DNA of 40,000 nt, taken from the NCBI RefSeq assembly GCF_048571175.1, contig NZ_CP182348.1, positions 649,517-689,516 of the forward strand, written 5' to 3'. This document shows, piece by piece, positions 13,801 to 38,209 of the stretch. Under the pieces are notes generated by a model that saw only the letters and a list, made by a program, of their open reading frames with translations, was not told the DNA's origin and ran no database searches. Position numbers and translations under genes: made by a program. Numbering within the stretch: the first letter of the stretch is position 1; each line of letters begins with the position of its first letter. The stretch is from Terasakiella sp. GTDB taxonomy: Bacteria > Pseudomonadota > Alphaproteobacteria > Rhodospirillales > Terasakiellaceae.

Positions 13801-14091
13801 ATGAATTGTCCTTCAACGAAGGACGGGCATGTCGTCATGCCTGAGGAAGAATTTGAGCAACTGCTTGAGTTGGCCGCTGAACGTGGTGCAAAGCGGGCAC
13901 TGGCGGATGTTGGTCTGGTCGATGAAGAAGCGGCTGGCGATATCCGTGATCTTCGCTCTCTACTCGGCGCTTTGCGTGTGGCCAAGCATACCGCCTGGTC
14001 GACCATTGTCCGTCTCGTCACCACAGGGGTGTTGATCGCCCTGATGGCGGGGGTGGCCATAAAACTTAAACTGTTTGGGGGAGGTCACTGA
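13801..14091 (+). CDS. Small C-terminally membrane-anchored protein of the lysis cassette
   Basis: 96 aa with a strong RBS (gaggaga). One C-terminal TM segment (VTTGVLIALMAGVAI). ATGA-type coupling to the endolysin gene. Confidence 0.4.
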   Translation: MNCPSTKDGHVVMPEEEFEQLLELAAERGAKRALADVGLVDEEAAGDIRDLRSLLGALRVAKHTAWSTIVRLVTTGVLIALMAGVAIKLKLFGGGH

Positions 14092-19310: not shown

Positions 19311-19349
19311 GACGGATTTCCAGTGTCAGCATACATTCAAGAATTTGGG

Positions 19350-22300: not shown

Positions 22301-22463
22301 TTGCCGGGAAAACAGCGGTGAGCTGGTCCGTCAGCAGAACATCAGAATAATTGCCGCGTGCCGGATTGGCTCCATCAGGCGCGATGTCAGGGCCGTGAAC
22401 GACTTCCCAGCCAGTTTCCTTGAACCAATCAAGGCAGAGGTTTTCTAGTTGTTCTTCATTCAT
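19350..22463 (-). CDS. hsdR: Type I restriction enzyme R subunit
   Basis: 1037 aa. Motifs WHTQGSGKS (Walker A), ISDEAHRSQ (DEAH), typical N-terminus [14 protein letters not shown] and C-terminal helical tail. Confidence 0.95.
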
Positions 22464-23323
22464 TGTTCACCTCTTAATTCTGCCTGCTCAGTGCGGACCT
22501 CGTTCGAAATCAATTCGTTGCAATGAAGGGAAGAACCGGTCAGGTCGGGATATAAATTTGCAAAATGCAGGTTCATTCTGCGTAGCGCCATTAAACAATC
22601 TTGACGCTCATCTTTCGTTTCAATTGGGATATGAAGTTTGAAAATGTAATCTTTAAGGACGAGAGGGTCGTCCACATCGACTTCGTTTTCAGCCAGAGTG
22701 TTAATGATTGTGGTTTCGAGGCTTGTTTCACCGCTGGGGGACAGGGTGAATAAGCCATCTTGACTGATTAAACGGTCATGATCGCTGCTCAGTGGATTAA
22801 CAAAGAGGTCATGAGGAAAAAACGTTTCAAGGTTGCTTTTGTTCAAGCCGAATATGGCACGGCTATAGTTCTTTGGCTTCTCATGCTTTGGATCTTCCTC
22901 GTGCATGGCGAAAAACATGGCGACAAACGGGGAGTGAGACCAATCGAGAAGGGGTGTCCACAGGCCATAATGTTGACCCAGGGCCCATATGTCATCGGCA
23001 CTACCCATCTGAGAGACGGGAATTTTAGTTCTGCCGCGAATAGAGTATTTGAAATTCTCTAAATGGCGTTCGGCCCAGTCTTCTTGGTAGGTCCCCGCTT
23101 CTGTCATGCGGGCGATACTAGGTGTTAAGCCCCAAGATGCATTCCTTTGTCCGCGAAACAGCATTTCGCATGATGAGGACGCAATCTTTCCTGCGTTTGT
23201 AAGTTGCAGAAATTCTTCCCAATTCTTCAAACGGGCCACAGGGATGTTGCCATCCACTTTATCGCCGTGGATGACGAAATCGGGCCACTTAGGAGATTTC
23301 AGGAAGGGTTTCCGTCTAGTCAT
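22460..23323 (-). CDS. FRG-domain protein embedded in the type I operon
   Basis: Motifs [38 protein letters not shown] and [12 protein letters not shown] at 23323 overlaps the hsdS stop by 8 nt, and its stop forms ATGA with the hsdR start. Confidence 0.8.
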
Positions 23324-24695
23324 CAGCAAGCCCCTCCAAATCGATTTCTCCCGACAGGAGCTTGGGTAAAAGCGTGTCCCGGAGCGATTTTAGCGTTTCC
23401 TGCTCGACCAAATTGCTTTCAATGTTGTCAAGGTATGGAGCGGTCACGCTGCAGAATAGAGCTTGGATCTCTTCAGAAGGAACACAATACTTCAGTTTTT
23501 CCATATCTTTGCGAGTTACATGACCTAGGCCAGTGGTCTGCTTGTTTTTCGCTATCGCAATGAAAACAGGCTTTAGATGTTTAAGAAGCCAAAATGTGGA
23601 GTTCCGTTGGGCAGGCTCAGAGTTGACCACTTTGAAAATGTGCTGATTCAGCCAAGCTTCACCGCCAACCCAAATAAAGGTGTCAATTGAAGTCTCTGGA
23701 CTGCCCGACCAGGAAAATAATATATCTCCGGTGTCGAGTTTGAATTTGTCTCCAAGGTCTGTGTTCGTAAATTTTGTATTTCCGGTAATTCCACTTTTAA
23801 GTTCCGCAATTTTGATCACGGGCTTTGCATCAGGATCAGAAGAAAAATGCATATTTTTATATGCGGCACCGTTAATGAATTCAGCAGAATTGATCACAGC
23901 TTCAGTTGTCCAACCCTCGGGGATCGGGCCAAGTTCACTGTCTGCCAAAGCTGCTGGAAAGAGTGCGGCAGTAGCTTGGAGCTTAGCATAAGCTTCTGGT
24001 TGGTCAGCTGCCATCGCATCTAATGCGGCGCTGTCTTTGCCAGAAATGGCTGTCATCGCGGCGCGTTCGGCTTCGTCTTCTGTGCCGCCTGCTTCGAGAA
24101 CTTTAATTTTTGCCTTGGTTGGCTCAAAATCCACAAACCAGCTTTTGAAAATCGCTTGCGCCATTTCCTCCAGCGTTCTGTTGATCTGGTTGTTGATTTC
24201 GATTTTGTCGTCGAGCGCCTTTAAGTGGTCGCCAATTTTTCTTTGAACATTTGGGCTAGGTATATAGGCTCTGTATTGTGTGATTGCAGTTTTATCACCG
24301 CGTGGCATTTTAGCGCCTTTTGATGTCTGATCTGTGTAATCGACAAAGTGCTTGTTGCTCAGCAGGTAATATAAAAATGTAGGCAATACATTTTTTTTAT
24401 CTTTGGATCGAAAAATTAAAACATCTGGTGAAGCGCCGCCTTCAAAGCTTGCATGCCACACTTTGCGAAAGTATGTGCGAATGTTTGAAAATAATGTGTC
24501 GCCAACTTGGAAGTGATTAAATTTTGAAGCGGCCGGTAATTTAGACGCCTTTTCGACTCCTCCACGATCCACGATCATATTGTCGGTGGAAATATAAGTA
24601 TTTTCATCTACCTCATCGGCGGAAATTTTATCGCTGATTAGGTCAATAATATTGCCTAATTCATGCGTTGTGTTGAAATCAAAGTCAGCAGTCAT
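23316..24695 (-). CDS. hsdS: Type I restriction enzyme specificity subunit (two TRDs)
   Basis: Central conserved helix TLEEMAQAIFKSWFVDFEP and C-terminal LKSLRDTLLPKLLSGEI. ATG at 24695 overlaps the hsdM stop by 11 nt; the track start at 24752 lies inside hsdM. Confidence 0.9.
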   Translation of the reverse strand: MTADFDFNTTHELGNIIDLISDKISADEVDENTYISTDNMIVDRGGVEKASKLPAASKFNHFQVGDTLFSNIRTYFRKVWHASFEGGASPDVLIFRSKDKKNVLPTFLYYLLSNKHFVDYTDQTSKGAKMPRGDKTAITQYRAYIPSPNVQRKIGDHLKALDDKIEINNQINRTLEEMAQAIFKSWFVDFEPTKAKIKVLEAGGTEDEAERAAMTAISGKDSAALDAMAADQPEAYAKLQATAALFPAALADSELGPIPEGWTTEAVINSAEFINGAAYKNMHFSSDPDAKPVIKIAELKSGITGNTKFTNTDLGDKFKLDTGDILFSWSGSPETSIDTFIWVGGEAWLNQHIFKVVNSEPAQRNSTFWLLKHLKPVFIAIAKNKQTTGLGHVTRKDMEKLKYCVPSEEIQALFCSVTAPYLDNIESNLVEQETLKSLRDTLLPKLLSGEIDLEGLADD

Positions 24696-26415
24696 AACCC
24701 AACCCCGCCAAGTTAGATTTGATCTCATTCTCCAACGCTTCGGCTGTTTCAAACTGGGATGAAAGTTCAGCCGATAGACGGGTCATCTTTTCTGTAAACG
24801 GTTCTGTATCTTCTTCACCGTCAACGGCACCGACGTAACGACCGGGTGTAAGCACAAAGTCGTGCTTGTCCATGTCTGCTAATTCGGCAGAGAAACAAAA
24901 GCCTTTTTCATCCGCATAATCAGTGCCTGTTTTCCAAGCATGGAAGGTCCCAGCAATCTTTGCGATGTCTTTATTCGTAAAATCACGCAGCACCCGGTCT
25001 TTCATGAAGCCGATATTTCGAGCGTCGATGAAGAGTGTTTTGCCGCTGCGATCTCGTTTTCCATTGCCGCCCTTTTTGTTTTTGGTTAGGAACCAGATAC
25101 AGGCTGGAATTTGTGTGTTAGTGAAGAGTTGGCCTGGCAAAGCAACCATACATTCTACGAGATCGTTTTGGATGAGAGCCTTACGAATAACGCCTTCGTT
25201 GTTGGTGTTGCTGCTCATAGACCCATTTGCGAGTAAGAGTGCCATAGAGCCATTGTTGTTCAGATGATGCAGCATATGAAGAATCCACGCGAAATTTGCA
25301 TTGCCTGCAGGCGGTGTTTCATACCCTTTCCAGCGCACATCATCTTCAAGGCTGGCATGCCACCAGTCTTTGATGTTGAAAGGCGGGTTGGCCATCACAA
25401 AGTCGGCGCGAAGATCTGGATGCTGATCATCTAAAAAGCTATCAGCGTTTTTCTTGCCGAAATTAAAATCGATCCCGCGAATAGCCATGTTCATGGCAGC
25501 CAATTTCCAGGTGGTTGGATTGCTTTCCTGACCGTAAACCGAGATATGTTTCTTCTGCTCCTGAGCGTTGTAATGCTTTTCCGCAGCATGGGCTTCGATG
25601 AATTTATCATTCGAGACGAAGAAGCCCCCCGCACCCATGGCAGGGTCGTAGACGCGGCCTTTATATGGCTCGAGCATTTCTACAATCAGGGTAACAACGC
25701 TTTTCGGTGTGTAATACTGCCCACCCTGTTTTCCTTCCGCGAGGGCGAATTGCCCGAGGAAATATTCGTAGACGTGACCGAGAATGTCTTTGCTGTGCAG
25801 GTCCAGCTTTTCCCCTTCAAATTCCGGATTGCTGAAGCTGGTATCCGAGAATTTGTTGATGAGCTCTGTAAGGTTATGGTTATCCACCTGATATTGACTA
25901 ATGCGTGGAAGGACATTTTTTAGTTTTGGGTTGGCTGGCTTATCGCCAATCTTATAAGTCTCAATGGCTTCAAGCGCATTGTCGATCAGCTTTGAAATAG
26001 ACGTTAGCTTGATGTCTTTGCCGCTCTCGTCTTGTCCGATAACGGAACCAATGGGCTGGGCAGCCGTTGTTTTCAGGAAGTCCCAGCGTGATTGTTTGGG
26101 CACCCAAAAAACATTCTTTTCCTGATAATACTCGTGAAGTTCCAACTCGGCGCTGACGGCTTCTTCGTATTCTTCGTCGCTGCCATAATCGTCACGCGGC
26201 ATGAAGTAGATGTTGTCGTCGCTGTCATCTTCCGTGAATAATTTGCGAAGCTCATTGCGGCGTTCTTCGAATGCATCAGATACATACTTTAAGAAGATGA
26301 GCCCTAGCACCACATGTTTGTAGTTGGCGGCATCCAGGTTGTTGCGCAAACGATCGGCAGCTTTCCACAGTTTGTCGTCGAGCTCTTTTAAGAATTTTTG
26401 TTCTGCTGATTTCAT
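24685..26415 (-). CDS. hsdM: Type I restriction enzyme N6-adenine methyltransferase subunit
   Basis: AdoMet motif YDPAMGAGGFF, catalytic NPPF (FVMANPPFNIKDW), and an HsdM N-terminal domain (LWKAADRLRNNLDAANYKHVVLGLIFLKY). Confidence 0.95.
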   Translation of the reverse strand: MKSAEQKFLKELDDKLWKAADRLRNNLDAANYKHVVLGLIFLKYVSDAFEERRNELRKLFTEDDSDDNIYFMPRDDYGSDEEYEEAVSAELELHEYYQEKNVFWVPKQSRWDFLKTTAAQPIGSVIGQDESGKDIKLTSISKLIDNALEAIETYKIGDKPANPKLKNVLPRISQYQVDNHNLTELINKFSDTSFSNPEFEGEKLDLHSKDILGHVYEYFLGQFALAEGKQGGQYYTPKSVVTLIVEMLEPYKGRVYDPAMGAGGFFVSNDKFIEAHAAEKHYNAQEQKKHISVYGQESNPTTWKLAAMNMAIRGIDFNFGKKNADSFLDDQHPDLRADFVMANPPFNIKDWWHASLEDDVRWKGYETPPAGNANFAWILHMLHHLNNNGSMALLLANGSMSSNTNNEGVIRKALIQNDLVECMVALPGQLFTNTQIPACIWFLTKNKKGGNGKRDRSGKTLFIDARNIGFMKDRVLRDFTNKDIAKIAGTFHAWKTGTDYADEKGFCFSAELADMDKHDFVLTPGRYVGAVDGEEDTEPFTEKMTRLSAELSSQFETAEALENEIKSNLAGLGYDC

Positions 26416-26428
26416 CTTTTTCTCTCAT

Positions 26429-27364
26429 TCACGCATTGCTGACGTCAGTCAGGAACTGTTGGTTGTGATGGCTGGTATACCCTGGTGCAATCGCAAGGTT
26501 TTCAACGCCGTAAAGGGTTGGGGTGTTCTTCAGCCACAGATGATACTCTGGACCGGCTAGTTTATGGTCTTCGGTGCAGTCCACATTCCACTTACGGAGA
26601 AGGTAGCCAGCAACGGCGGCTCGAACCTCTACATTGAGCAGGTTGTCAGACATGCCATATTCAAGGCTAATGGCTTCCGGGTGTTTAAGGGCAGGATGCG
26701 GAACGATATGCATCTCAACAATTCGGTTCCACTGTTTGTCCGCGTCTTTTATTTCATGAGGCAATATCAATACGTTCTTTGCAAGTTTAACGCTGGCGAT
26801 CCTGTTAATTACAAAATCAGAAAAGCGCTCTCTTGCACGGTCAAACCCACGCACATGCCAGCGAAGACCATTATCGACCAGTGCGAAAGGGACTATCTCG
26901 CGTTTTGAATTGCCGCTTGATATGGATAGGTAGGTGATTTCAAGGGGAACCTTGTTGTGGATTGCCCTAGTGATGGCAGCCAGAATATCAATATTGGGAA
27001 AATTCAGCTCTGTTGGAGCTTCGGCGGGAACCAGTGAGCATTCCGGGCTGACAAAATCATCCCCATAGCCATGAAGAAGGGCTGCAAGTGTCTGGCTCCC
27101 CGAATATTCGAAAAGGGGTCTGAAACCGTCACGCTGGATATAGGTTTTTACTTTTGTGTCATATTCGATGTTTTTAGGGGTTAAGTCTTTGTATTGGGAA
27201 AGGTCGCGTGAGGCTGCGGCTTCCTTGATCCCGAATCGCTCGACCAAATCAGATCTATTAACTGAGCCTAGGAAATAGAGTTTGAAGTCGATATGAAACA
27301 GTCGCTCCTGCTGTGCTTGGCTGATTTCGGCCAGTTTTGCTTGGATGTCATCCCCTGCAGACAT
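26429..27364 (-). CDS. wHTH-WYL transcriptional regulator (BrxR/CapW-like)
   Basis: ATG at 27364 with GGGGAGA upstream. N-terminus ERLFHIDFKLYFLGSVNRSDLVERFGIKEAAASRDLSQYKDL and WYL core REIVPFALVDNGLRWHVRGFDRARERFSDFVINRI. Its stop lies 13 bp before the hsdM start. Confidence 0.7.
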   Translation of the reverse strand: MSAGDDIQAKLAEISQAQQERLFHIDFKLYFLGSVNRSDLVERFGIKEAAASRDLSQYKDLTPKNIEYDTKVKTYIQRDGFRPLFEYSGSQTLAALLHGYGDDFVSPECSLVPAEAPTELNFPNIDILAAITRAIHNKVPLEITYLSISSGNSKREIVPFALVDNGLRWHVRGFDRARERFSDFVINRIASVKLAKNVLILPHEIKDADKQWNRIVEMHIVPHPALKHPEAISLEYGMSDNLLNVEVRAAVAGYLLRKWNVDCTEDHKLAGPEYHLWLKNTPTLYGVENLAIAPGYTSHHNQQFLTDVSNA

Positions 27365-27501
27365 TTTTCTCCCCAGTTTTATAGCGTGCCAGTTGCGGCT
27401 ATAAAGTAGCGTATAGGGATATATGGTATTTATATATGTGTCAATATGATAACCACTAAGGGTGTTGGTGTCCGATGTTTTTACCCTTGCTCTTTTCTGA
27501 A

Positions 27502-27539
27502 AGGGACGTGCCAATTTGGCGGCAGACTGGCACGTCCCT
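27502..27539. repeat. Perfect 12-bp inverted repeat AGGGACGTGCCA-N14-TGGCACGTCCCT
   Basis: Read directly, 140-175 bp upstream of the WYL regulator start. There is no proper T-tract on either strand, so it looks more like an operator than a terminator. Confidence 0.6.
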
Positions 27540-27711
27540 AACTCGCAAAGCTGATTGCCTATCAATCAACCTTTCGACCAGCAATAAGGTGCTAGTCTTG
27601 GTGGGCCCAGAGCGGGATCGCCGCCATCCCCACCTCCGTCCTTGATCCGCCCCTCACGACGGCGTCTCCGACGGTCCCCGCGCTTATCGGGTCCGGGTCC
27701 CCTTGGATGCG

Positions 27712-28617
27712 TCACTCGCGCTCAAGGTCACGGGTGTCAGCGCCAACTGCATCCATTACTGATCGAAGCTCGCCGAACATTGAGCCATGATGGCGATCCA
27801 GATAGTCGGCGATGGTTTCATTTTTCAGAAGTTTTGATAGGTAACCTTTGGCGACGACCAATGTAAACATTGTGTCTCCAAGCGTGTCTTCGACATTTCG
27901 GTATTCTTGTTGCAGGCGTTCCATTTCCCGCTCCATCCGTGCAATATCCTCAGGCGAAACGCCTTTGAGCATGTTTTTCTTTTCTGGTTTCACGAGCTTG
28001 TCCGGGGGCATTCCGGCCAAAAGAACCTTGGCATAAGTGACGGTGTATCGGTTTGCGGACATCATCATTTCGCAAGCCTCGATCTGGGCCATTGGCTTCA
28101 TCTTTCGGAGAATGCCGAACACCTGTACACTCACCATTTTTTCCTTCAGAAGTTCGACGGCCTCTGGCGCAATGTTTCGGAGCATGTTTTGGCGCTCACG
28201 AATGCGCTTTACGTCCACGTCCAAAGCTTCCGCGATTCTTTCTTGAGAAACGCCACGTTCAATCGCTTTGACGATCATATTGTGCTCCTGCACAGCACTA
28301 AGGCGGTTCACACGCCGATTGTATGTAAAGCTCTCATCGTCCGTTGAGACCAGGCAGATGGCTTCTGTTTCTCCAAGCTGCTTCAGGGCTTCTAAGCGGA
28401 GGTGCCCATCCAGCAGGATATAGTTTTTATTCTTTCCGGATCCTGAGTCAGGAAAAACCGCCAACGGTTCAATGATCCCCACGTCTTTAACAGAAGCCAG
28501 GATAGTTCGATATTTGCGTGTCCGGTGAAGCCCCTGTGAGAGAGGCCTAGTTGGTGCGATACGGTCAAGAGGGACCTGGATCGTGTCATCCAGAAATCCC
28601 TTGGTGATGGTGGTCAT
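27712..28617 (-). CDS. ParB/Srx N-terminal domain protein with RepB-C-like C-terminus (paralog B)
   Basis: Motifs IIEPLAVF...YILLDGHLRLEAL, an HTH (VSQERIAEALDVDVKRIRERQNML), and an ATGA overlap with the upstream paralog. Confidence 0.7.
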   Translation of the reverse strand: MTTITKGFLDDTIQVPLDRIAPTRPLSQGLHRTRKYRTILASVKDVGIIEPLAVFPDSGSGKNKNYILLDGHLRLEALKQLGETEAICLVSTDDESFTYNRRVNRLSAVQEHNMIVKAIERGVSQERIAEALDVDVKRIRERQNMLRNIAPEAVELLKEKMVSVQVFGILRKMKPMAQIEACEMMMSANRYTVTYAKVLLAGMPPDKLVKPEKKNMLKGVSPEDIARMEREMERLQQEYRNVEDTLGDTMFTLVVAKGYLSKLLKNETIADYLDRHHGSMFGELRSVMDAVGADTRDLERE

Positions 28618-29480
28618 GGATGCAACCTCTCTGCAAGAGGTTGCGGCATGTCGCTGTATCCTTCCGCTCGAAGGAGCGTTCGAAAATGCTCATCCGCCAA
28701 GAGACGACGTAGTGCCGAGATCAGAAACAAAAGGCGCTGCTCGTTAACGTCAGCCTTCTTGATCAACAGTTTCTGGCGGTTGACTTCATCTTGATAGGTT
28801 TGAACCAGCTTGCGGGTTGAAAAGGGCTTGTCTGTTCTTCTTGAATGGGTGCGATAGCGTTTACCCATGAAGCGACGGCGCTCGATTATGCGACGCACTT
28901 TGATGAGCTGATCTCCACGCAAGGCCCCGCTTTCATATGCTTCGGTCAGGCCTTTCTGTAATTCGTTTTCGCTGCTGCGCGAAATTTCAACGGCCATGCT
29001 AAGCGGGATTACGTTCTTTTCTACTGCAGCAATGAGCCGTTCTTCTCCTTCTTTCAGTAGGTGAGAGATGCCACGAACGTAAGTCACGTCCAAGTCTGTT
29101 TTCTTGGCGATTTCCCGGGCGTTATAGCCACGTTCCTCAAGATCCTTTATCCCATGGAGAAGATCCATATTGGTGTGTTGGCGACGAGCTATGTTTTCAA
29201 TCAGGCTCATCAGGTAGCAGTCTTGCTCTGACGCCTTGATGACCATTGCAGGAATTTCCGTCTCGCCGAGTGCCTGGTATGCCTCAACGCGGCCCTGTCC
29301 GCATACCAAGTCATACCCATTCCGTGATGGGGTGACGGTAATAGGCCTTTTCAGTCCAATCGAAGCGATATTATCGACGATACCTGCGAAGACTTTCTTA
29401 TTTCGCACACGCGGATTGATCACCCTTATTTGGTCAATCGGGATCATTTGAATAGAGGGTGAAACCGGTTGGCTTTGCAT
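28614..29480 (-). CDS. ParB/Srx N-terminal domain protein with HTH (paralog A)
   Basis: Motifs IPIDQIRVINPRVRN, YDLVCGQGRVEAYQALG, and an HTH (YNAREIAKKTDLDVTYVRGISHL). Its start ATG shares 1 nt with the recombinase stop (TAATG). Confidence 0.7.
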   Translation of the reverse strand: MQSQPVSPSIQMIPIDQIRVINPRVRNKKVFAGIVDNIASIGLKRPITVTPSRNGYDLVCGQGRVEAYQALGETEIPAMVIKASEQDCYLMSLIENIARRQHTNMDLLHGIKDLEERGYNAREIAKKTDLDVTYVRGISHLLKEGEERLIAAVEKNVIPLSMAVEISRSSENELQKGLTEAYESGALRGDQLIKVRRIIERRRFMGKRYRTHSRRTDKPFSTRKLVQTYQDEVNRQKLLIKKADVNEQRLLFLISALRRLLADEHFRTLLRAEGYSDMPQPLAERLHP

Positions 29481-31057
29481 TATGCGACCTCCTTCAAATT
29501 GACACGGCGAGCGAGGCGATAAAGGTAGTCCAAGCTGTCAAACCGATAGATGTCGAGGTTTAGCCCGTTCTCCTCTGCAAGTCGTAGTTTTGGCAAAGCC
29601 ATATCGATTGAAGGCAGAAGGTAATAATCAAGCGGCTGTTCGTTGCCATGGGCCATTCGAACGGCAATGGTGATGTCTGGTCTAAGCCCGGTGTCAAAGC
29701 GGATATTCCACCGGAGGGATCCCGCGTTTGTTTCTTGGCAGCGGCTTAGAACCAATGAAACGGTGAATTCTCTATTGATCCATAGGAGGCCAGTTTCAGG
29801 GTCTGTCTCGACTGTGCAGCCGAGGGCTTCAATGTTTTGTATGGTTGAGGCAACGATGTCCGGGTGCATTTCCCGGAGATGGCGATTGATTTCGATATAT
29901 CGATAGTCTCGGTCTGGCTTATAGCCAATTTTGTGGTAGGCGCGGATGAGGCTGCCAAACCGATGTCGATAGGCCCCTGACGACGGCATTCCTTCTGTTT
30001 CGTCGATAATGATGCCGGATAGAGCGCCATGTTTTTGTAGCAGCGTTGATAGGTGTTCAAGCATTTCGTCATCAGAAAAGCGGCGGTTTCGCTCTTCGAT
30101 GATTGCTTGTGCCGCTTGGAAAATTTCTGGATCGACAATTCCTTCAAATGCACCTTCGTTTCGAACCCACATCTCTGGGGGGTTGTCGACACGTTTATTT
30201 TTAAGCTTGCAAGAGGATCGGTTGTAGAGGTTGTTGCCGATGTATTTTTCGTTGGTCAGTAGTTGATGAACGGAGGCTCGGGTCCAAGGCCTGTTCAGAT
30301 CCGTAAAGATACCCTGTTCATTTAGTCGCGCGGCTATCTGGGCCTCATTTTGGCCGTCTTCAACGAAAGCCCGATACATCCAGCTTACGGTTTCAACTTC
30401 TTCGTCAGGGCCGGGGATTAGAATGACACGATCTGTCTGAAGGCTTTTTCGGTCGCCACGGTTTAGAATGCCTTTAGGGGAGCCCGTTTCGTCAACCATC
30501 ATTCGGCGGAGGCCATAACCGGCGGGGCCACCTTGTCGATAACCTAGTTCGATCAGACGGCACTGACCGGCAAAGACCTTGACGGAGAGCTCTCGACTGT
30601 ACTCGCCAGCCATAGCTCTTTTCACCGTTTTCACGATGGTGGAGCTGATGCTTCCGTCATTCTCAAATTGCTCGGCGCAGTATTCGACGCGGATGCCTGC
30701 TCGTTTGCACAGGTACTCGTAGAAAGCGCTTTCGTCAGAGTCCTGGAAACGTCCCCAGCGACTGACGTCGTAAACCAGAATAACTGAAAAATCAGCTTGT
30801 CCCGCTTCTACATCGTTGATGAGTCGCTGCAAGCCATCTCGCCCATCTATGTTAAGGCCGCTACGTCCTTCGTCGGCATAGGTTTTGATAATCTGGTAGC
30901 CCTTGCGGGCGGCATATTGGTGAATCGTGTCACCTTGGTTTTCCGTAGAGTATTTTTGGTGCTCTGTGGACATCCGAACGTATTCAGCCGCCCGGATGAG
31001 CGTCGCGTTATTTTCGGGAGATTTATCCGGGGCTGAATCCTGTTTTTCTGTCACCAA
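29480..31057 (-). CDS. Large serine recombinase
   Basis: 525 aa. Resolvase catalytic domain (AAEYVRMSTEHQKYSTENQ, VYDVSRWGRF), followed by a recombinase domain and a long C-terminal region. Confidence 0.9.
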   Translation of the reverse strand: MVTEKQDSAPDKSPENNATLIRAAEYVRMSTEHQKYSTENQGDTIHQYAARKGYQIIKTYADEGRSGLNIDGRDGLQRLINDVEAGQADFSVILVYDVSRWGRFQDSDESAFYEYLCKRAGIRVEYCAEQFENDGSISSTIVKTVKRAMAGEYSRELSVKVFAGQCRLIELGYRQGGPAGYGLRRMMVDETGSPKGILNRGDRKSLQTDRVILIPGPDEEVETVSWMYRAFVEDGQNEAQIAARLNEQGIFTDLNRPWTRASVHQLLTNEKYIGNNLYNRSSCKLKNKRVDNPPEMWVRNEGAFEGIVDPEIFQAAQAIIEERNRRFSDDEMLEHLSTLLQKHGALSGIIIDETEGMPSSGAYRHRFGSLIRAYHKIGYKPDRDYRYIEINRHLREMHPDIVASTIQNIEALGCTVETDPETGLLWINREFTVSLVLSRCQETNAGSLRWNIRFDTGLRPDITIAVRMAHGNEQPLDYYLLPSIDMALPKLRLAEENGLNLDIYRFDSLDYLYRLARRVNLKEVA

Positions 31058-31208
31058 GGCAATCCTTCTTTTGTGCCGTTACACCGACATTTGCATGTAG
31101 GCGAGTTCGGCCTTCTTCGAGACTGCATGGAACCCTACGTGCCCTATGGGAAGTCACGAGACTCTAAAAAATCAACAGAATGTACCGTATTTGTCAATCA
31201 TTAAATAT

Positions 31209-31342
31209 ACAAAATGTTGGAAAAAGTAGAGGGTGAGGTGTCTGTCAACTCCCGGTAAATACGCATTTTTTATGGGATGAAAGGGGGGTGATTCTAATCT
31301 AAGGTACACAAAATGTTGTTGTTAAGGTGGTTGAAATGTTGG
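31209..31342. promoter_or_regulatory. Repeated ACAAAATGTTG motifs in the divergent recombinase/XRE control region
   Basis: Exact 11-mers at 31209-31219 and 31308-31318, plus GAAATGTTGG at 31333-31342, inside an AT-rich 295-bp divergent intergenic region. Confidence 0.35.
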
Positions 31343-31352
31343 ATTATGAAGT

Positions 31353-31685
31353 ATGGACAATAGAATTAGTGAACTTCGTAAGGCAAAAGGGCTGACCATA
31401 AAAAGGCTGGCCGAGCTTGTCGGGACGAGCAATCAACAAATCAGCCACTTGGAGAAGGGGCATCGCCGACTAACACTCGAGTGGATGGAGCGAATCGCGG
31501 AAGCCTTGGAATGCCACCCATCTGACTTGTTAAATGGTGGAACGCGCCTCGAAAACGATCGAGAACGAGCGATGATTGAGCTGTTCCGTGGCCTTTCAGA
31601 GGAGCAGCAGGAAGCATTTTTACAAGCGACTGCTGCGTTGGCGAAACCGATAGAGAAAGAAGAAAAGAAGGTCAAAGCCGGTTAA
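31353..31685 (+). CDS. XRE-family HTH transcriptional regulator
   Basis: Motif LRKAKGLTIKRLAELVGTSNQQISHLEKGHRRLTLEWMERIAEAL. Confidence 0.85.
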   Translation: MDNRISELRKAKGLTIKRLAELVGTSNQQISHLEKGHRRLTLEWMERIAEALECHPSDLLNGGTRLENDRERAMIELFRGLSEEQQEAFLQATAALAKPIEKEEKKVKAG

Positions 31686-31693
31686 ATAGGAAT

Positions 31694-31718
31694 GGCCGCA
31701 CCGGTATTGGCTGCGGCC
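31694..31718. terminator. Bidirectional hairpin between the convergent XRE and integrase genes
   Basis: ggccgca (31694-31700) pairs with tgcggcc (31712-31718), followed by ttt. Confidence 0.45.
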
Positions 31719-31729
31719 TTTGACTTAGT

Positions 31730-32896
31730 TCAGATGCTTCCGCTATTCAGGCTGTCAAAAATGTTGGAAGAAACAGAGCTGGCGGCTGCCTTGACGGGAT
31801 CTGCTGCTAGATGTGCATACCGGGCAGTTGTTTGAACCTGGGTGTGTCCGAGAAGCTTACCAATCATGGGCAGGCTCATTCCTTGTGCAACGGCGTTGGA
31901 GGCAAATGAATGTCGCAGATCATGGATGCGAACATCTTCAATGCCAGCACGCTTGCGGATCCGTTGCCAGAATTTCTGGATTTCTTTGCGGTTGGTTCCC
32001 GGGATTTTGCCACAGATAACCCATGGGTTCTTTGGCTGCCGTTTGAGATTTTTCAGGAGATCAAGGGCAGGGGGGCCGAGATGGACAACCCGTGCGCCAG
32101 TCTTTGAGTCTGATAGCCGTAGGCAGCTGTTGGCGAAATCAACCTCTGCCCATTTGAGTGACATGATTTCGTTGAGACGGCAGCCGGTGAAAATGAGGAG
32201 GCGGATAGCAGATATAGCGTAGATATCATCAACACCCATTTCCTCAGCTTCGTTCAGCACTGAGCCGAGGTCGCTTAGCTCCTTCTGGCTGAGGTAGCGT
32301 TCCCGTTTTTCTTCAGGGTATTTTTTGATGTGTAGCCGTGGATTGGAGCCGTCAGGGCGCATTCCCCACATCTCTGCCATCGAAAACATTTTGGAGATGA
32401 CCTCAAGGTTCCGATTTGCCTGGTATGGGATGTGGCGTAAATCGTGATGGAATTTGGCGACGTCGGCCCGTGTCACATCAGCGACCTTCAATCGTCCAAG
32501 GGCAGGCAATATGAAGCGGCGGAGGTTGCGTCGGTATTCTGTGGCGGTGCCTTGCTTGAGGCGGACAGAAATATGTTCTTGATCGAACCGCTCTGCCAGC
32601 TCTTTCACCGTGCAGGCTTTTCGGGCTCGGGAACGTTCACCAGCAGGATCTTCTCCGTCCTTGACGGCAGCTAAAACCTTGAATGCCATTCGGCGGGCTT
32701 TTTCGGGAGTGAGGACACCATGGGCCCCAAGGCTCATGCGTCTGTATCGATTGCCGATCCGGTATTGAACGATATAGGAACGACGGCCACTTGGTAAAAT
32801 GCGAACGGCAAACCCGGCAAGATCGTCATCGCAGATGATATAGTCTTTGTCTTGCGGCTTGGCAGCCTCGACAAGGCGTTTGGTGATTTTAGGCAT
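31730..32896 (-). CDS. int: Tyrosine integrase with DUF4102-type arm-binding N-terminus
   Basis: N-terminus DDLAGFAVRILPSGRRSYIVQYR. Catalytic motifs HDLRHSFAS and LGHTQVQTTARYAHL. Confidence 0.9.
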   Translation of the reverse strand: MPKITKRLVEAAKPQDKDYIICDDDLAGFAVRILPSGRRSYIVQYRIGNRYRRMSLGAHGVLTPEKARRMAFKVLAAVKDGEDPAGERSRARKACTVKELAERFDQEHISVRLKQGTATEYRRNLRRFILPALGRLKVADVTRADVAKFHHDLRHIPYQANRNLEVISKMFSMAEMWGMRPDGSNPRLHIKKYPEEKRERYLSQKELSDLGSVLNEAEEMGVDDIYAISAIRLLIFTGCRLNEIMSLKWAEVDFANSCLRLSDSKTGARVVHLGPPALDLLKNLKRQPKNPWVICGKIPGTNRKEIQKFWQRIRKRAGIEDVRIHDLRHSFASNAVAQGMSLPMIGKLLGHTQVQTTARYAHLAADPVKAAASSVSSNIFDSLNSGSI

Positions 32897-32945
32897 AGGG
32901 CACCTCTTTGCGGCTGATTAACTCTCGGTGATTGCTGCGCCGTTC

Positions 32946-33133
32946 TTAATCCCTGGAATCATAGTGGAATCATGAGGGCTGGTTTCGGCGAGCAACCGAT
33001 CGAATGACAGCGTAAAGCGATGTCTGAATTAGTCCAGTAATATCAATTGGTTATAGTGTTTCTGCGAAATCTTTAGAAATGGCCATATCACGGCTCATAA
33101 TCTGAGAGCAGTAGAACGAAATCCTGCGCATCA
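32946..33133 (+). repeat. Attachment-site-like block A: arm repeats plus a decayed tRNA 3-prime-half-like core
   Basis: Homologous to block B. 32946-32979 matches 36137-36170 at 28/34. 33055-33091 matches 36182-36218 at 29/37. The core 33092-33133 starts with the ggctcataa-ctga anticodon-loop sequence. TGGAATCA occurs twice, 11 bp apart (32954, 32965). Confidence 0.55.
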
Positions 33134-33235
33134 TCCTGCTATCAGAGCGAAAACGTGAGTAGTTCGGATATACAGGTTTGTTTTCGCTGTGTCCCGCAGG
33201 TTTCTGGCCTTTTTCGCACCTCTTTGAGTTCTCTT

Positions 33236-33259
33236 GATTCCAGAAGGGAGGCTGGAATC
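33236..33259. repeat. Inverted pair of the arm motif: GATTCCAG-N8-CTGGAATC
   Basis: Read directly. It uses the same TGGAATC heptamer as the arm repeats in blocks A and B and lies about 100 bp right of core A. Confidence 0.4.
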
Positions 33260-33460
33260 GGGAAAGCTAAGGCCTGTTGGGAGGGGCGGGTGTGCCGATC
33301 CTCAGGTTATTGGGTGCAGGGTTTTAAATGTGCAGAAATTGTGGGGATGACATTTTTAGGATTTTTTTTGCCATCAGTGCTGCCGACAAAAAGGAACATT
33401 AGTGCGATTGATTTTGAGGTCGCTGCTTTGTGCAGCAAAAATCTGAAAATGGAGAGTGAA

Positions 33461-33610
33461 ATGACTTCGAAATCCTCGCCCAAAGGGCAAATGACAAAGG
33501 CGGCAGCAGCTCGAATTCAAAGTGCCACGGCAAAAGCCAATGGCGGACAAGTTGCCAAAGGTAGTTTCTCAAGTCGAGCAACATCGGCGGCAGCACGAAA
33601 AGGCAAATAG
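33461..33610 (+). CDS. Small Ala/Lys/Ser-rich hypothetical protein (49 aa)
   Basis: ATG at 33461 with GGAGAG 6 nt upstream, and its own terminator downstream. Sequence MTSKSSPKGQMTKAAAARIQSATAKANGGQVAKGSFSSRATSAAARKGK. The upstream part of the 151-aa track ORF is not credible. Confidence 0.45.
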   Translation: MTSKSSPKGQMTKAAAARIQSATAKANGGQVAKGSFSSRATSAAARKGK

Positions 33611-33618
33611 AAGCATTG

Positions 33619-33651
33619 GGGCGAAAGTATGTGCTTTCGCCCTTATCTTTT
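33619..33651 (+). terminator. Rho-independent terminator
   Basis: gggcgaaag (33619-33627) pairs with ctttcgccc (33634-33642), followed by ttatctttt. Confidence 0.65.
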
Positions 33652-33670
33652 AGTTTCAGGGTTCCAAATA

Positions 33671-33865
33671 ATGTATTATTCAAAGAATAAAGATATCGCG
33701 GAAATTGTAAGGAAACATTTGCGAAATGGATGGTGTTTCCGACGCGGTAAAAAGCACGGGAGGCTAGTAGCACCGGGTGGCCGGTTTGTGATTGTTCCCA
33801 CAACGCCAAGTGATGGGCGTGCAATATTTAATTTCATGGGGGAGTTACGCCGTTGCTATGAATAA
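33671..33865 (+). CDS. HicA/YcfA-like small protein (64 aa)
   Basis: The sequence KDIAEIVRKHLRNGWCFRRGKKHGRLVAPGGRFVIVPTTPSDGRAIFNFMGELRR aligns by eye with the HicA pattern (GW/F..R..G.H..L..P.GR...VP). It overlaps the downstream ATG by 8 nt. Confidence 0.45.
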   Translation: MYYSKNKDIAEIVRKHLRNGWCFRRGKKHGRLVAPGGRFVIVPTTPSDGRAIFNFMGELRRCYE

Positions 33866-36101
33866 GAAGGAAATTAAGACGAAACCACCATATCCAACGC
33901 TAGGTGAAATTATTCAATTGCTAGCAACGGCATTTGGCACCAAGTCGGCTAATGCAGAAATAAGGAAAAAACTCGATCGATTGGCCAGGGAAGGCGATTT
34001 TGATTGGAGCCTCCCATCACAAATCGTCGATGAATTGTTATTGAAACCGCTTGGCGAATTTGACACGGATTATTCTGAATTTGTCGGTGATTTTGTAAAT
34101 TTCATATTGAAAGAGCACGTAAACCTTATATCGCGAGTTTCACTTGATGCCATGTCGCGACGAGATGCGACGCCTTTGCTTTTTGAAACAATAGGCGTGC
34201 GACATGTCGCGGAATTTTTAATCGCGTTAAAAGAGCAATTCGGTGGGCCTGATCTTGGTGATTTTCTCGGTCAAGAAGTGAGTCCACTCAACGTTGTATT
34301 TCAATGGTGTGAAGTGGCGCTGGAGCTTGATGTGGCAAACCTGCTGTTTTCCGGCAATAAACAAAAACGAGACGATATTGCCCGTTGGCGTCGAGGAGAG
34401 ACAGTCCCAGATTTTTTCGCTTCTATAAGGCCTATCCAGCGTTCGCTTATGGAATGTTGTCCAGGTCGGCAATCGGAAATATCTCTTTTCGGAAAATGGT
34501 TGATTACTGCACGAACTCTGTCATGGCTTATGAGAGAGGTAGAAAAGGTAGGGTTGGGTTCCCTAATTGGGCCAGTCCGTCAAGACATTCTGTTGAATTG
34601 CCCAGTGCGGGATATTGGGATGGAGTTGTCGTCTGCTAATAGTGATGCGGGGAATCGTTTGAGGGAAGTGGCTGAATGTTGTGGGCCGCTTATGTTGGTC
34701 GGTTTGAGCAGGACAAAGGATAAGTCCTCTGAGGCGCAGTCAAATTCCCGTGGAGAAATAGATCGCCTTAAAGGTTTGATTAATAAGCACGATGCCGATG
34801 GCCTTACGGGTTACATATTGGATTGGTGTGAAGGCCGGTGGCATATTTTAGCGGGTGATCAAGTGAAGGCGCTTGCATTCTACGACAGGGCTGCAGATTT
34901 GGCATTGTATAGGGCAGGGGATAATCAAAAGCAAATTTTGGAAGAGGCTCTTTCTCTTGCGGCGCACCTTGGTAAGAAGACCGTAATTAAGAAACTCAAG
35001 CATCGTGCTTTGGCTATGGGGTTTTTCTCTGAATTATTTGCGAAATTTTCAGATCGTCCCGATGTTGTTTCAGATTGGGAAATTGACCAGCTTAGTCAGG
35101 CGTTTAATGTTTTATTCCCCATCCATGCTCGTTTCCCAGAGGCTCTCAAGAGAAAACAAAGAGTAACCCCTTTTCCGTTTCGAGCTTTCTATCAACCTGA
35201 TTCCGATAAGAGGAAACCAGACTTATCAAACCCGGATCGGGTTATTGGTATTCCAATGGCTGATGGAACGAAAATGCGTCGTCCACAGTTAATATGGTTT
35301 GCCTCTGAAGACCGTGTGGATGATGTTCGTGAACTTCTCAAAGCAGGGGCCGATGTGAACATTTCTGATCACCAGGGTGGTTCAGCTTTGCTGCATGCAT
35401 TGCAGTGTGCCGAGGATGGGCGGGGGCGACAGGTTCTTGATCTGTTACTAGACCAGAGCCATGATAAAGAAACCCTCAATCGGATGACCGAGAAAAAGCG
35501 TTTGTCTCCCCTGTACGTTGCGGTGCTTTTAGGGGATCCCACTGTGGTGGAAAAATTGCTGAGAATGGGAGCGGATCCCAATTTGCAAGCAAGTTATCCA
35601 CCACAGACAGCTTTATATGTATGTATCGAACGTTTTGCGTTTTACCGACAGGGCTGGGGGGAGGAGCATTTCAGGCAGCGGATGGCTGAGCCTCAAAAGG
35701 AAGATGCGGAAATACACCGGCGATACTCGGGAGGATTAGCCGGTGCTATGGGTGATCGGATGTCGATAGAAAAATTTGGACCGGAGGGGGCAAACTTAAT
35801 GGATGCCTTGATTAAGCATTTTGTTCAAAAGGCCTCAGATGTGCCTCGGGGTGTTTTTTTGCGGATTGCGGAATTACTGTTAACTTTTGGCGCGGACCCA
35901 AATCGAAAGCACTCATCTCCTGGTCCTGGGAGGACGCCTCTCATGTTGGCGGCTGAAAATGATGCGCTGGATGCTTTTCGCTTAATGACCGCTCATGCAG
36001 GTGATCCAAGCTTCAAGGATGATCAAGGACATGATTGTTTTGCACTGGCCTGTGGATTTGGAAGTCAGAATGTAATGTCGTATTTGAAGTGTGGTTCGTA
36101 G
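33858..36101 (+). CDS. Large helical/TPR-like protein with C-terminal ankyrin repeats (747 aa)
   Basis: About 5-6 ANK units from roughly 35280 onward (VDDVRELLKAGADVNISDHQGGSALLHAL; LSPLYVAVLLGDPTVVEKLLRMGADPN; RTPLMLAAENDALDAFRLMTAHAGDPSFKDDQGHDCFALA). The start is taken at ATG 33858 rather than track 33792. No P-loop was seen. Confidence 0.75.
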   Translation: MNKKEIKTKPPYPTLGEIIQLLATAFGTKSANAEIRKKLDRLAREGDFDWSLPSQIVDELLLKPLGEFDTDYSEFVGDFVNFILKEHVNLISRVSLDAMSRRDATPLLFETIGVRHVAEFLIALKEQFGGPDLGDFLGQEVSPLNVVFQWCEVALELDVANLLFSGNKQKRDDIARWRRGETVPDFFASIRPIQRSLMECCPGRQSEISLFGKWLITARTLSWLMREVEKVGLGSLIGPVRQDILLNCPVRDIGMELSSANSDAGNRLREVAECCGPLMLVGLSRTKDKSSEAQSNSRGEIDRLKGLINKHDADGLTGYILDWCEGRWHILAGDQVKALAFYDRAADLALYRAGDNQKQILEEALSLAAHLGKKTVIKKLKHRALAMGFFSELFAKFSDRPDVVSDWEIDQLSQAFNVLFPIHARFPEALKRKQRVTPFPFRAFYQPDSDKRKPDLSNPDRVIGIPMADGTKMRRPQLIWFASEDRVDDVRELLKAGADVNISDHQGGSALLHALQCAEDGRGRQVLDLLLDQSHDKETLNRMTEKKRLSPLYVAVLLGDPTVVEKLLRMGADPNLQASYPPQTALYVCIERFAFYRQGWGEEHFRQRMAEPQKEDAEIHRRYSGGLAGAMGDRMSIEKFGPEGANLMDALIKHFVQKASDVPRGVFLRIAELLLTFGADPNRKHSSPGPGRTPLMLAAENDALDAFRLMTAHAGDPSFKDDQGHDCFALACGFGSQNVMSYLKCGS

Positions 36102-36136
36102 CTAAGGATTATCAAATTTATTCTGGCGGAATAAAT

Positions 36137-36218
36137 TTAATCAATGGAATCACTATGGAATCATGTGGGCACGAAATGTTGAGTATTGCTGCGAAATCGT
36201 GAGGAATTGCCAAATCCC
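36137..36218 (+). repeat. Attachment-site-like block B arm region (TGGAATCA x2 plus second conserved block)
   Basis: TGGAATCA at 36145 and 36156, 11 bp apart. Homologous to block A, as listed there. Confidence 0.55.
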
Positions 36219-36292
36219 ATAAGGTTCTGATATGTTGTGTTATATCGAAGATGTGCGAAAAGTAGAGCGCATCAGAGCATACTATATGTTGT

Positions 36293-36339
36293 GGCTCATA
36301 ACCTGAAGGTCGTCAGTTCAAATCTGGCCCCCGCAACCA
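36293..36339 (+). other. 3-prime half of an initiator-like tRNA-Met(CAT), from anticodon loop to CCA; probable attR core
   Basis: ggCTCATAAcctgaaggtcgtcagTTCAAATctggcccccgcaACCA matches the E. coli tRNA-fMet 3-prime half nearly base for base, with compensatory T-stem changes. No complementary 5-prime acceptor strand (tgcgggg) lies upstream. Confidence 0.7.
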
Positions 36340-36348
36340 AAAACTAAA

Positions 36349-36382
36349 GGTCTCGCCCAACGGGCGGGGCCTTTTGTTTTTT
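36349..36382 (+). terminator. Strong rho-independent terminator (original tRNA terminator)
   Basis: ggtctcgccc-aac-gggcggggcc forms a 10-bp stem, followed by ttttgtttttt. Confidence 0.75.
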
Positions 36383-36534: not shown

Positions 36535-38209
36535 GGCTGAGCGGTTTGCGTGAAGTAAATGTGGATATACACGCGCAAAAACAAGCTAAAATGGTTTGTG
36601 TTTGATTTTAAGTCAGCATAAAGCGTTCCGCTTTGACAGAACGCGCGGAGTTTTCCATTTTCGTGTTGCCTTGTTTTATCCGGGTGTCAGCCGTTTCCAG
36701 GCGGTGAAGAAGATGTTTTGGTAAGGATAGGCATCCGGGAAGCTCAATTTAATCCGGCGCACCGAGCGGATCACTTTGGCTCCAACCTTGAGCAATTTAA
36801 GCCGAATGGTGTTGGGCGCAGCCTTGGCCTGTTCAGTTTCCTTCAATGCTTTCAATCGAATGTGCGTCATCAGCGCATAGGCAAAGCCCTCCAGCAACAG
36901 GCGCAGGTAATTTGATCTGAACTTATGGGCGCTTGCACGCGAACCGAACAGGTCGAGTTGGCAATCTTTGATGCGGTTTTCCATATCGCCTCTGGGGCAG
37001 TAGATTTTTTCATAGAGCACACGCCCGACAATATCTTTGCCCGGTGTCTGTTTGTTGGCGATCATCTCTTTGCGCATCTGTTTAACCGCACGGATCACAC
37101 GCGGGCTGTGCTCATCCAGAGAGGTCATGAGAAAGCGCACATGCTGTTCGCGTCCCTCCTGATCTTCGATCTTGGCAATGACATTGTAGGGGCGGCCCCA
37201 GGAACCGCTCTTGGGAATATGGGCAAACAAGCCAAAGTTCTTGAGGAAGGTACGTCCTTCTTTGACCCGCTGTTTTGATGTTTGCGATCTGGCCTCTGTG
37301 GCTTTGCGCAACAGATAGGAATTACGCGCCAGCCCAAAGATAAAATCCACAGCATTCGCCTTGCACCAGCGGATCAGAGGTTTGCGCACAAAACCGCTAT
37401 CGCCACGCACCAGAATATCAACCTTTGGCCAGCGTTTTCGAATTTGCTTCACAATGCTGCTGATGGCCCGGCGTGCGCCTTTTGCCCCATCGCAATCCCC
37501 TTCGCGCAATTGTGCCCATAAGAGGTGTGGCCCGGCAAAAATATAGAGAGGCAGAAAACCACGTTGCTCATAATATCCGTTCCAGGCGGACATCTCCTGT
37601 CGCCCATGAACCTGAATATCAGTCGCATCAATATCAAGAATGATGTCATGGGGCGGCTGTTTGTGATGATCCAGAAACAGATCGCACAGTAGTTCCTGCA
37701 TTTTGTAAAAACGCGGGGATAGCTTGTGATAGCGTTTGTTGCCTGTTGTTGTGCAACATTCCACCCGTCCCAAAGTGACGGATGAGGCCAGCTTGTCTCT
37801 TTCCTCATCAGCCATCAACCGCAAGGCAGGATCATGACACAAGGCATCATGGTCATTTAAATCCTCATAGCCAAGCACCAGACCTGTTACCCGCTGAGCC
37901 AGTAAATCAGACAATCCGTGACGAACATAACGCTCATCACGCTTATCCCAAAAACAATCTGCCAACCGAGAAAACAGGTTCATCCGCTTTGCTGCTTCAC
38001 GTAACAAAACCACCCCGCCGTCCGACGTAATCTCCCCACCATCGAATGCCGCAACAACCTGCTTTTTGCCTTGACTGGAAAACAACATCGAAAAAACACC
38101 CTGTATTTTCTACATACAGTCTATTTTAACATAACTTACTGTTATAAATGAATTTATTAGGAGAAAGAAGAGAACTTGTGACGGATCCGGGATCTGGGAT
38201 CACTCAGCC
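36535..38209 (-). mobile_element. IS1380-family insertion sequence (ends approximate)
   Basis: Candidate terminal inverted repeats GGCTGAGCGGT (36535-) and the reverse complement of atcactcagcc (-38209) match at 9/11. The implied length of 1675 bp fits IS1380-family sizes. No target-site duplication was found. Confidence 0.35.
36676..38088 (-). CDS. IS1380-family DDE transposase
   Basis: 470 aa. N-terminus FDGGEITSDGGVVLLREAAKRMNLFSRLADCF...LAQRVTGLVLGYEDLNDHDALCHDP is typical of IS1380-family transposases. Confidence 0.85.
   Translation of the reverse strand: MLFSSQGKKQVVAAFDGGEITSDGGVVLLREAAKRMNLFSRLADCFWDKRDERYVRHGLSDLLAQRVTGLVLGYEDLNDHDALCHDPALRLMADEERDKLASSVTLGRVECCTTTGNKRYHKLSPRFYKMQELLCDLFLDHHKQPPHDIILDIDATDIQVHGRQEMSAWNGYYEQRGFLPLYIFAGPHLLWAQLREGDCDGAKGARRAISSIVKQIRKRWPKVDILVRGDSGFVRKPLIRWCKANAVDFIFGLARNSYLLRKATEARSQTSKQRVKEGRTFLKNFGLFAHIPKSGSWGRPYNVIAKIEDQEGREQHVRFLMTSLDEHSPRVIRAVKQMRKEMIANKQTPGKDIVGRVLYEKIYCPRGDMENRIKDCQLDLFGSRASAHKFRSNYLRLLLEGFAYALMTHIRLKALKETEQAKAAPNTIRLKLLKVGAKVIRSVRRIKLSFPDAYPYQNIFFTAWKRLTPG

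Follow-up and report, generated by a model that had tools for sequence, protein, structure and literature searches.

The 40,000 nucleotides (nt) of Terasakiella sp. DNA analyzed here (contig NZ_CP182348.1, positions 649,517 to 689,516; this whole stretch is called the window) contain a cassette of three genes, in which a gene for a small HicA-like protein stands between sm, a gene for a very basic short protein, and a gene for a large protein made of a helical domain followed by ankyrin repeats. The three co-directional genes form one operon, with translational coupling between the second and the third. The following features, numbered from the first letter of the window, belong to the cassette.

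33461..33610, plus strand: sm gene, the first gene of the cassette, 49 amino acids (aa), MTSKSSPKGQMTKAAAARIQSATAKANGGQVAKGSFSSRATSAAARKGK, with a GGAGAG Shine-Dalgarno sequence before the ATG
33618..33643, plus strand: GC-rich stem-loop between the sm and HicA-like genes, 11-bp stem and tetraloop, found by a scan for terminator-like structures and by folding
33671..33865, plus strand: HicA-like gene, 64 aa, ATG at 33671, TAA at 33863-33865, isoelectric point (pI) 10.4
33858..36101, plus strand: large gene, 747 aa, ATG at 33858, stop at 36099-36101, pI 6.3 (mildly acidic)
33858..35180, plus strand: N-domain of the large protein (residues 1 to about 440), a conserved family predicted as all-helical, based on conserved motifs and an AlphaFold (AF2) model
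35181..36101, plus strand: linker with a beta-hairpin (residues about 441-476), then the ankyrin domain (about 477-747), based on Pfam, AF2, and Foldseek
36346..36374, plus strand: intrinsic-terminator-like hairpin, 13-bp stem and T-run, 245 nt past the stop codon of the large gene

An earlier note on this DNA had described the 64-aa and 747-aa genes as an overlapping pair. Its coordinates were confirmed, as was the peptide it quoted, NGWCFRRGKKHGRLVAPGGRFVIVPTTPSDG, which is part of the 64-aa open reading frame (ORF); the overlap of 8 nt, ATGAATAA, is found both in the ORF list and in the sequence itself. Since the hidden Markov model (HMM) of the HicA-like family gives 78-146 bits in more than 110 independent loci with 11-18 invariant residues, and since the 747-aa protein has 79 database relatives with identities down to 33% over the full length, both ORFs are real genes and not chance ones. 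An alternative start for the small gene giving 78 aa (ATG at 33629) was rejected, because it lies inside the hairpin at 33618-33643 and the homologues all begin with M-x-Y-S/C. The operon probably ends at the strong hairpin at 36346-36374.

The HicA-like nature of the 64-aa protein, proposed in the earlier note, is borne out by fold prediction, by a defence-system model, and by a conserved histidine. The PADLOC model PDLC02910 (HicA-like) matches the window protein with E=5.2e-23 and 78.7 bits over model positions 2-60 of 61. The AF2 model, built on 45 homologues, has a predicted local distance difference test (pLDDT) value of 89.7 and shows the order alpha-beta-beta-beta-alpha (helix 7-18, strands 22-24, 30-33, and 39-42, helix 50-63). 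When this model was compared with the PDB by Foldseek, the top two matches were the HicA structures 1whz (template-modelling score, TM, 0.53) and 5yrz_B (TM 0.56-0.60, probability 0.93), and Escherichia coli HicA (6hpb_A) was found at rank 17. Two motifs characterize the family, namely G-x-x-H-G-K-L with the invariant His29 and VP-x-TPSD-x-RA-x-x-NF. Across the 45 sequences, His29, Gly20/30, and the VP-x-TPSD motif are invariant, as is the NF motif, and Gly26 is conserved in at least 90%. In an hhalign alignment with E. coli HicA, the sequence of which was checked against 6HPB, GKKHGRL of the window protein pairs with GSNHLKL, so that His29 is placed on His23, the catalytic residue of the E. 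coli protein. A profile search of PDB sequences recovered no HicA; the heat-shock-factor winged-helix matches obtained there (E about 0.06) were judged to be accidental, since both the topology and the fold search favor HicA. Pfam HicA_toxin gave sub-threshold matches in 21 of the 45 family members (best E=2e-4) and none for the window protein. We therefore call the 64-aa protein HicA-like by its predicted fold, the PADLOC model, and the conserved His, and not by a curated sequence profile.

Although the large gene is in the position that hicB holds in hicAB operons, its product is unrelated to HicB, in line with the earlier note, which had seen no HicB-like features: no HicB or DNA-binding domain was matched by Pfam, and the predicted structure is all-helical plus ankyrin. 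The C-terminal ankyrin repeats noted before were identified by Pfam with Ank_2 (E=1.6e-17) and Ank (E=1.5e-14) at residues about 478-581 and 690-744, together with further matches to Ank_3, Ank_5, and Ank_4. In the AF2 model of the whole protein (pLDDT 90.6, predicted TM score, pTM, 0.86), this domain has about 6 repeats and a helical insertion at about 585-660, and the PDB matches of the ankyrin half in Foldseek are exclusively DARPins or ankyrins. The absence of a P-loop was likewise confirmed, and the protein has neither a transmembrane segment nor a signal-like (hydrophobic) N-terminus. The earlier description of the N-terminal region as about 500 helical residues with TPR-like stretches was correct in part: residues about 15-420 form helices only in the AF2 model, that is about 420 residues and not 500, and they include helical hairpins at residues 318-386, but no Pfam TPR model matched at E<=1.

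For the first 455 or so residues of the large protein Pfam gave nothing, the N-domain belongs to no Pfam, NCBIfam, or PADLOC family, and a profile search of PDB sequences with it was empty. The domain has nevertheless a set of conserved motifs (PPYPxLGE, DRLAREGDFDW, LDAxSR, RWRxGxxxPD, GRWHxL, ALYRxGxxQ, and KxLKHRA), and the family comprises 397 clusters (50% identity) at E<=1e-3. Among 145 representatives, 111 have the N-domain joined to ankyrin repeats (N+Ank), 32 are N-domain only (N-only) or fragments, and none is fused to any other domain.

Conservation of the cassette was followed in two censuses. One was anchored on the N-domain, used one genome per GTDB species, and gave 37 loci; the other was anchored on the HicA-like gene, used a degenerate DNA pattern over metagenomes, and gave 82 loci, with a bias toward the clade that supplied the pattern. 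The HicA-like gene directly upstream, and sm before it, were present in all 28 N+Ank genome loci, and the distance between the HicA-like and large genes ranged there from -4 to +36 nt. In the metagenomes, the N+Ank gene was found in 41 of the 47 loci with at least 2.3 kb downstream, and sm, recognized by its family HMM, in 67 of the 75 with room upstream. The pair, for which the earlier note had proposed a census of neighbors, is thus strictly kept (28/28 genome and 41/47 metagenome loci), and the note is not refuted on the grounds that it had itself named. The N-only genes of Pseudomonas and Cellvibrionales (n=8) have neither the HicA-like gene nor sm, and one N-only gene of Lysobacterales retains the HicA-like gene.

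The cassette is present in Rhodospirillales, Rhodocyclaceae, Burkholderiales, Rhodanobacter, a Verrucomicrobia metagenome-assembled genome, and marine TARA contigs; the hosts are free-living environmental Proteobacteria, and the metagenomes are those of activated sludge, freshwater, and the sea. The trio is kept across Alpha-, Beta-, and Gammaproteobacteria within unrelated flanks. No match to the N-domain family or to the HicA-like clade was obtained in 50,697 phage records, the N-domain family was not found in IMG/VR by a motif scan, and it is nearly missing from 72,556 plasmid records. Plasmids of Acinetobacter soli have a divergent large protein, with 25% identity over residues 305-747, and its HicA-like neighbor keeps the His. 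The cassette is an autonomous, horizontally mobile, and widespread unit.

Two variants of its surroundings can be added here. In the A. soli plasmid CP119217 (locus L132, 6001-8480), an unannotated HicA-like ORF overlaps by 1 nt the gene of an annotated 763-aa ankyrin protein; this pair adjoins an IS3 element, a DUF262-HNH (GmrSD-like) gene, and an AAA gene, and is the only plasmid-borne version of the cassette that was found. In the Burkholderiales clade (L027, L033, L035, L036, L039, L040, L043, and L088), an AAA ATPase of about 526 aa with weak IetA/TRIP13-like PADLOC matches always precedes the cassette, and convergent genes for 157-aa and 377-aa proteins without a family, together with an XRE regulator, lie 3' of it. 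The ATPase, the cassette, and these downstream genes may constitute a larger conserved unit.

The sm protein has a pI of 12 with zero acidic residues and a weak similarity to SMP/LEA-like repeats; Pfam gave weak SMP and Ifi-6-16 matches and no HicB features. In a marine clade (L057, 2167-2331) and at Pseudomonas N-only loci (L004, 5751-5936), sm is replaced by a Gly-rich basic small protein with the motif PGGNWPS. Since this protein also precedes N-only genes, a small basic first gene accompanies the N-domain even where there is no HicA-like gene.

The stem-loop between sm and the HicA-like gene has a folding z-score of -2.9 in the window. Other loci gave 84 unique intergenic sequences, and these have a hairpin in the corresponding place, with a median z of -3.46 against dinucleotide shuffles (z<-2 in 73 of the 84), a median stem of 11 bp, and a tetraloop as the commonest loop. 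Because every stem position shows all Watson-Crick pair types among these sequences, the hairpin is conserved in structure and not in sequence. Most of the hairpins are not canonical intrinsic terminators, since a T-rich tail follows in merely 4 of the 84. The 3' end of the hairpin lies a median of 13 nt ahead of the HicA-like start codon. It could serve as an attenuator, a partial terminator, a stabilizer of an mRNA 3' end, or a processing site, and it may be a binding or cleavage site for the HicA-like protein, whose predicted fold is of the double-stranded RNA-binding domain (dsRBD) type.

The same HicA-like clade is found in another setting. In five metagenome loci (L062, L068, L075, L105, and L117) and on a Sulfitobacter plasmid, the HicA-like gene lies behind the viperin gene pVip and overlaps it (PADLOC pVip E=1e-91), with no sm and no N-domain gene; the pVip-linked proteins reach 82 bits against PDLC02910. 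In L068 (422-2537), L105 (6972-9246), and the Sulfitobacter plasmid NZ_CP025811 (L133, 4117-6238), the layout is viperin, overlapping HicA-like gene, and a convergent gene for a protein of about 345 aa, the L068 and L105 proteins being 41% identical. This protein was considered as a relative of the N-domain and rejected, since it matched neither the N-domain nor the C-terminal HMM of the cassette, the only test run. From the accession order we infer that the PADLOC models HicA-like (PDLC02910) and Ankyrin (02908), which follow pVip PDLC02903-05, are viperin-group models. An assignment of these two models to Dpd or another system was dropped, because the accession numbering puts them with the viperin models. 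The HicA-like genes next to pVip explain why the PADLOC HicA-like model stands among them. Among the 20 large ORFs of the window scanned with Pfam, there was no viperin or radical-SAM protein. A further arrangement was seen in L074 (TARA contig, 4872-7053), where sm and a divergent HicA-like gene (59 bits against the PADLOC model) are followed by a gene for a 597-aa protein with sub-threshold TPR matches. This protein was unrelated to the N-domain by the HMM test, and the layout suggests that HicA-like proteins may pair with other repeat proteins. The sm gene, the conserved hairpin, the pVip context of the clade, and the N-only homologues had all been overlooked in the earlier note.

The remainder of the window, in which no tRNA gene was found anywhere, contains the following features around the cassette.

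1-14000: phage or gene transfer agent (GTA)-like tail genes (DUF6441, tail tube, tape measure, GpJ-like tip attachment protein)
14904-27565, minus strand: defence island with a Mrr-type endonuclease, McrC/McrB (AAA_5), a type I restriction-modification (RM) system (HsdR, HsdS, HsdM), and a WYL regulator at the end
27.7-32.9 kb: two ParB/RepB genes, a large serine recombinase, and a tyrosine integrase
36676-38088: insertion sequence (IS), then a DEAD-box helicase

A gene with a FRG domain is inserted between hsdR and hsdS of the type I RM system, and the GC content is 0.53-0.60 in the tail module versus 0.43-0.51 in the island. The cassette itself is flanked by the integrase and the IS transposase. 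Window positions 27595-36343 are 94% identical to positions 5056-13810 of a JGI metagenome contig (L120), and the outer DNA differs. The shared block of 8.8 kb contains two ParB/RepB-like genes, the large serine recombinase, the tyrosine integrase, and the cassette, and the similarity stops at 36343, by the terminator-like hairpin at 36346-36374. Judged from this comparison of sequences, the block resembles the core of an integrative element whose cargo can be exchanged.

Elsewhere, the cassette is accompanied by DISARM-like genes, a BrxR-GmrSD-type I RM arrangement, Tn3, IS66, integrases, and a PAAR gene. Immediate neighbors vary widely: the 66 upstream genes fall into 49 clusters and the 49 downstream genes into 37, and their Pfam families include integrases, transposases, methylase, Fic, SRAP, and KilA-N. 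In 102 large neighbors from 24 loci, PADLOC matches at E<=1e-15 were obtained for type III and IIG RM, GajB-like, DruE, SoFic, KwaB, CapP, and DrmD. Taken qualitatively, these data may point to an enrichment of the cassette in defence and mobile regions.

On this basis, we consider the cassette to be a tripartite toxin-antitoxin (TA)-like or abortive-infection module with the HicA-like protein as effector, and assign to this reading a probability of about 0.42. The HicA-like protein would be a latent putative RNase, which the large, mildly acidic scaffold protein would bind and silence. The ankyrin half is the most likely site of this contact, because the presence of the HicA-like gene tracks the ankyrin half and not the N-domain: the 8 N-only loci without a HicA-like gene and the Acinetobacter homologue, which aligns over residues 305-747 and has a HicA-like neighbor, both support this link. 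On sensing a trigger, for instance phage infection, the scaffold would free or activate the HicA-like protein, and the outcome would be growth arrest, which would block phage spread or stabilize the island. The sm protein would be produced in excess, since the hairpin would lower read-through or stabilize the sm transcript, and we guess that this very basic protein acts as a third component with a regulatory or nucleic-acid-binding role. A more specific form of this model, namely a new three-component immune module in which the helical and ankyrin sensor restrains the HicA-clade RNase and frees it on infection, with sm and the hairpin setting the stoichiometry, is put forward tentatively and is in our opinion rather doubtful.

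Several observations weigh against the toxin-effector reading. The window 64-aa protein has no Pfam or NCBIfam match and is thus below the gathering threshold of HicA_toxin PF07927, and its very small size (64 residues) keeps the Foldseek E-values weak (0.2-0.5). A classical antitoxin function of sm was considered and is unlikely: the sm protein is as strongly basic as the putative toxin, so that it would hardly be a charge-complementary antitoxin, and the third role assigned to it above is a guess. N-only homologues without the HicA-like gene exist, which implies an independent function for the large protein. No recognizable antitoxin stands beside the pVip-linked HicA-like genes, and these proteins may therefore not be constitutively toxic. 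Lastly, the PADLOC matches among neighboring genes are a modest share of the 102, were tallied per model and not per protein, with no genome-wide background, and are to be read only qualitatively.

Part of this evidence would be accommodated if the HicA-like protein served not as a toxin but as an accessory or regulatory subunit that binds RNA (dsRBD), with the N-domain making the large protein the real effector or enzyme. The HicA-like protein might then attach to the hairpin in the mRNA that encodes it or bring in an RNA ligand, and the sm or G-rich protein would be a cofactor or a substrate. Such roles would agree with the N-domain proteins that stand alone in Pseudomonas and Cellvibrionales behind a different small G-rich gene and without a HicA-like gene, with the many invariant charged residues of the N-domain, and with the attachment of the HicA-like clade to pVip without an antitoxin. 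They would also agree with the conserved hairpin, which forms dsRNA and whose median distance to the HicA-like start codon downstream is 13 nt, and with the gene order, in which a hairpin behind a small first gene implies that the first product is in stoichiometric excess. However, the His at the catalytic position and the neighboring Gly are invariant in all members, which would be needless for a pure RNA binder, and neither a catalytic fold nor a catalytic motif is recognizable in the N-domain (Pfam and PDB gave no match, and it has no P-loop and no conserved HEPN-type motif). We regard this explanation as unlikely. Slightly less likely still, in our judgment, is another proposal, in which the HicA-like toxin and its partner form the same module but serve for post-segregational stabilization of an integrative island and not for phage defence. 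The cassette does travel in the 94%-identical block together with the pair of ParB/RepB genes, the large serine recombinase, and the tyrosine integrase, integrase or transposase genes are frequent as its immediate neighbors, and a divergent copy resides on Acinetobacter plasmids; but almost none was found in the 72,556 plasmid records, where addiction modules are typically abundant, the neighbors are too heterogeneous for a single type of element, and restriction and other defence genes are frequently adjacent.

The earlier note had also suggested that the ankyrin protein is a eukaryote-directed factor like those of symbiont-associated phages, a proposal under which it would be secreted and the small upstream ORFs would be incidental. 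We find this hardly credible. Weak matches to models of Legionella Dot/Icm Ank effectors were obtained, but they concern the repeats only and amount to 21-28 bits against cut-offs of 500-1400; moreover, the protein has no signal peptide and no transmembrane segment, the hosts are free-living environmental Proteobacteria, the family is missing from the phage collections (0 in the 50,697 records and in IMG/VR), and the large gene is strictly linked in an operon to the HicA-like gene and sm. The adjacent prophage, which the note had taken as support, does not help: the tail genes (1-14 kb) lie 19 kb away, beyond the restriction island and the recombinase genes, and their proximity is therefore incidental.

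HicA RNases are usually regarded as paired with HicB. The present analysis shows one distinct HicA clade tied firmly, across hundreds of lineages, to a large protein that belongs to no known family; members of this clade accompany viperins as well. Control of the RNase by the large protein, if real, would be a new type of TA-toxin gating, in which a repeat-scaffold sensor replaces a labile antitoxin, and it would open a route to explaining the antitoxin-free HicA-like genes at pVip loci. The analysis also defines an RNA element that is conserved between the first two cistrons and an uncharacterized family of N-domains predicted to be well folded; if our reading is true, it would provide a first function for this family of about 430 aa (about 400 clusters at 50% identity). 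A survey of HicA contexts lists 14 of them, with hicA downstream of pVip as Class 10, and explicitly asks why pVip loci carry HicA genes without an antitoxin; none of the 14 has an ankyrin or large helical partner (Gerdes, 2024; PMC10865869). The cassette, if interpreted correctly, would be a 15th, non-HicB context for the HicA family. A combination of HicA with ankyrin was not described in the literature searched, which covered HicA with ankyrin, defence, dpd, and reverse transcriptases.

Compared with canonical hicAB operons (E. coli HicAB, PDB 6HPB; Classes 1-4 of Gerdes, 2024), the cassette has in common a small basic upstream protein that shows the alpha-beta-beta-beta-alpha fold and carries a His where the catalytic residue lies, translational coupling to the downstream gene, and surroundings of a mobile or defence-island kind. 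It differs in that the partner has no partial RNase-H fold, helix-turn-helix, or ribbon-helix-helix and is instead a 747-aa helical and ankyrin protein, that a conserved upstream gene and a hairpin are added, and that the HicA-like protein is below the Pfam HicA_toxin threshold. With the pVip-associated HicA (Class 10 of Gerdes, 2024) it shares the HicA-like clade and the lack of a recognizable HicB, whereas in that class the gene overlaps a radical-SAM viperin and has no sm or N-domain/ankyrin gene, and the window has no viperin. Tripartite TA systems (TAC, paaR-paaA-parE, and retron-type) resemble it as three-gene operons in which two other proteins accompany a small putative toxin, but they share no homologous component with it. 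Repeat-sensor defence proteins (Avs/NLR-like STAND proteins with TPR sensors, PDC-M72A, and MzaA) are likewise large repeat proteins in defence-island neighborhoods, and the ankyrin part matches the PADLOC candidate PDC-M72A (E=6e-12) and MzaA (1e-6), on generic repeats only; the large protein of the cassette differs from them in that it lacks an NTPase domain (it has no P-loop) and is not fused to an effector. The HicA fold, the ankyrin repeats, and the TA-like operon layout are each known, while their combination, which brings with it the uncharacterized N-domain family, had no precedent in the literature searched.

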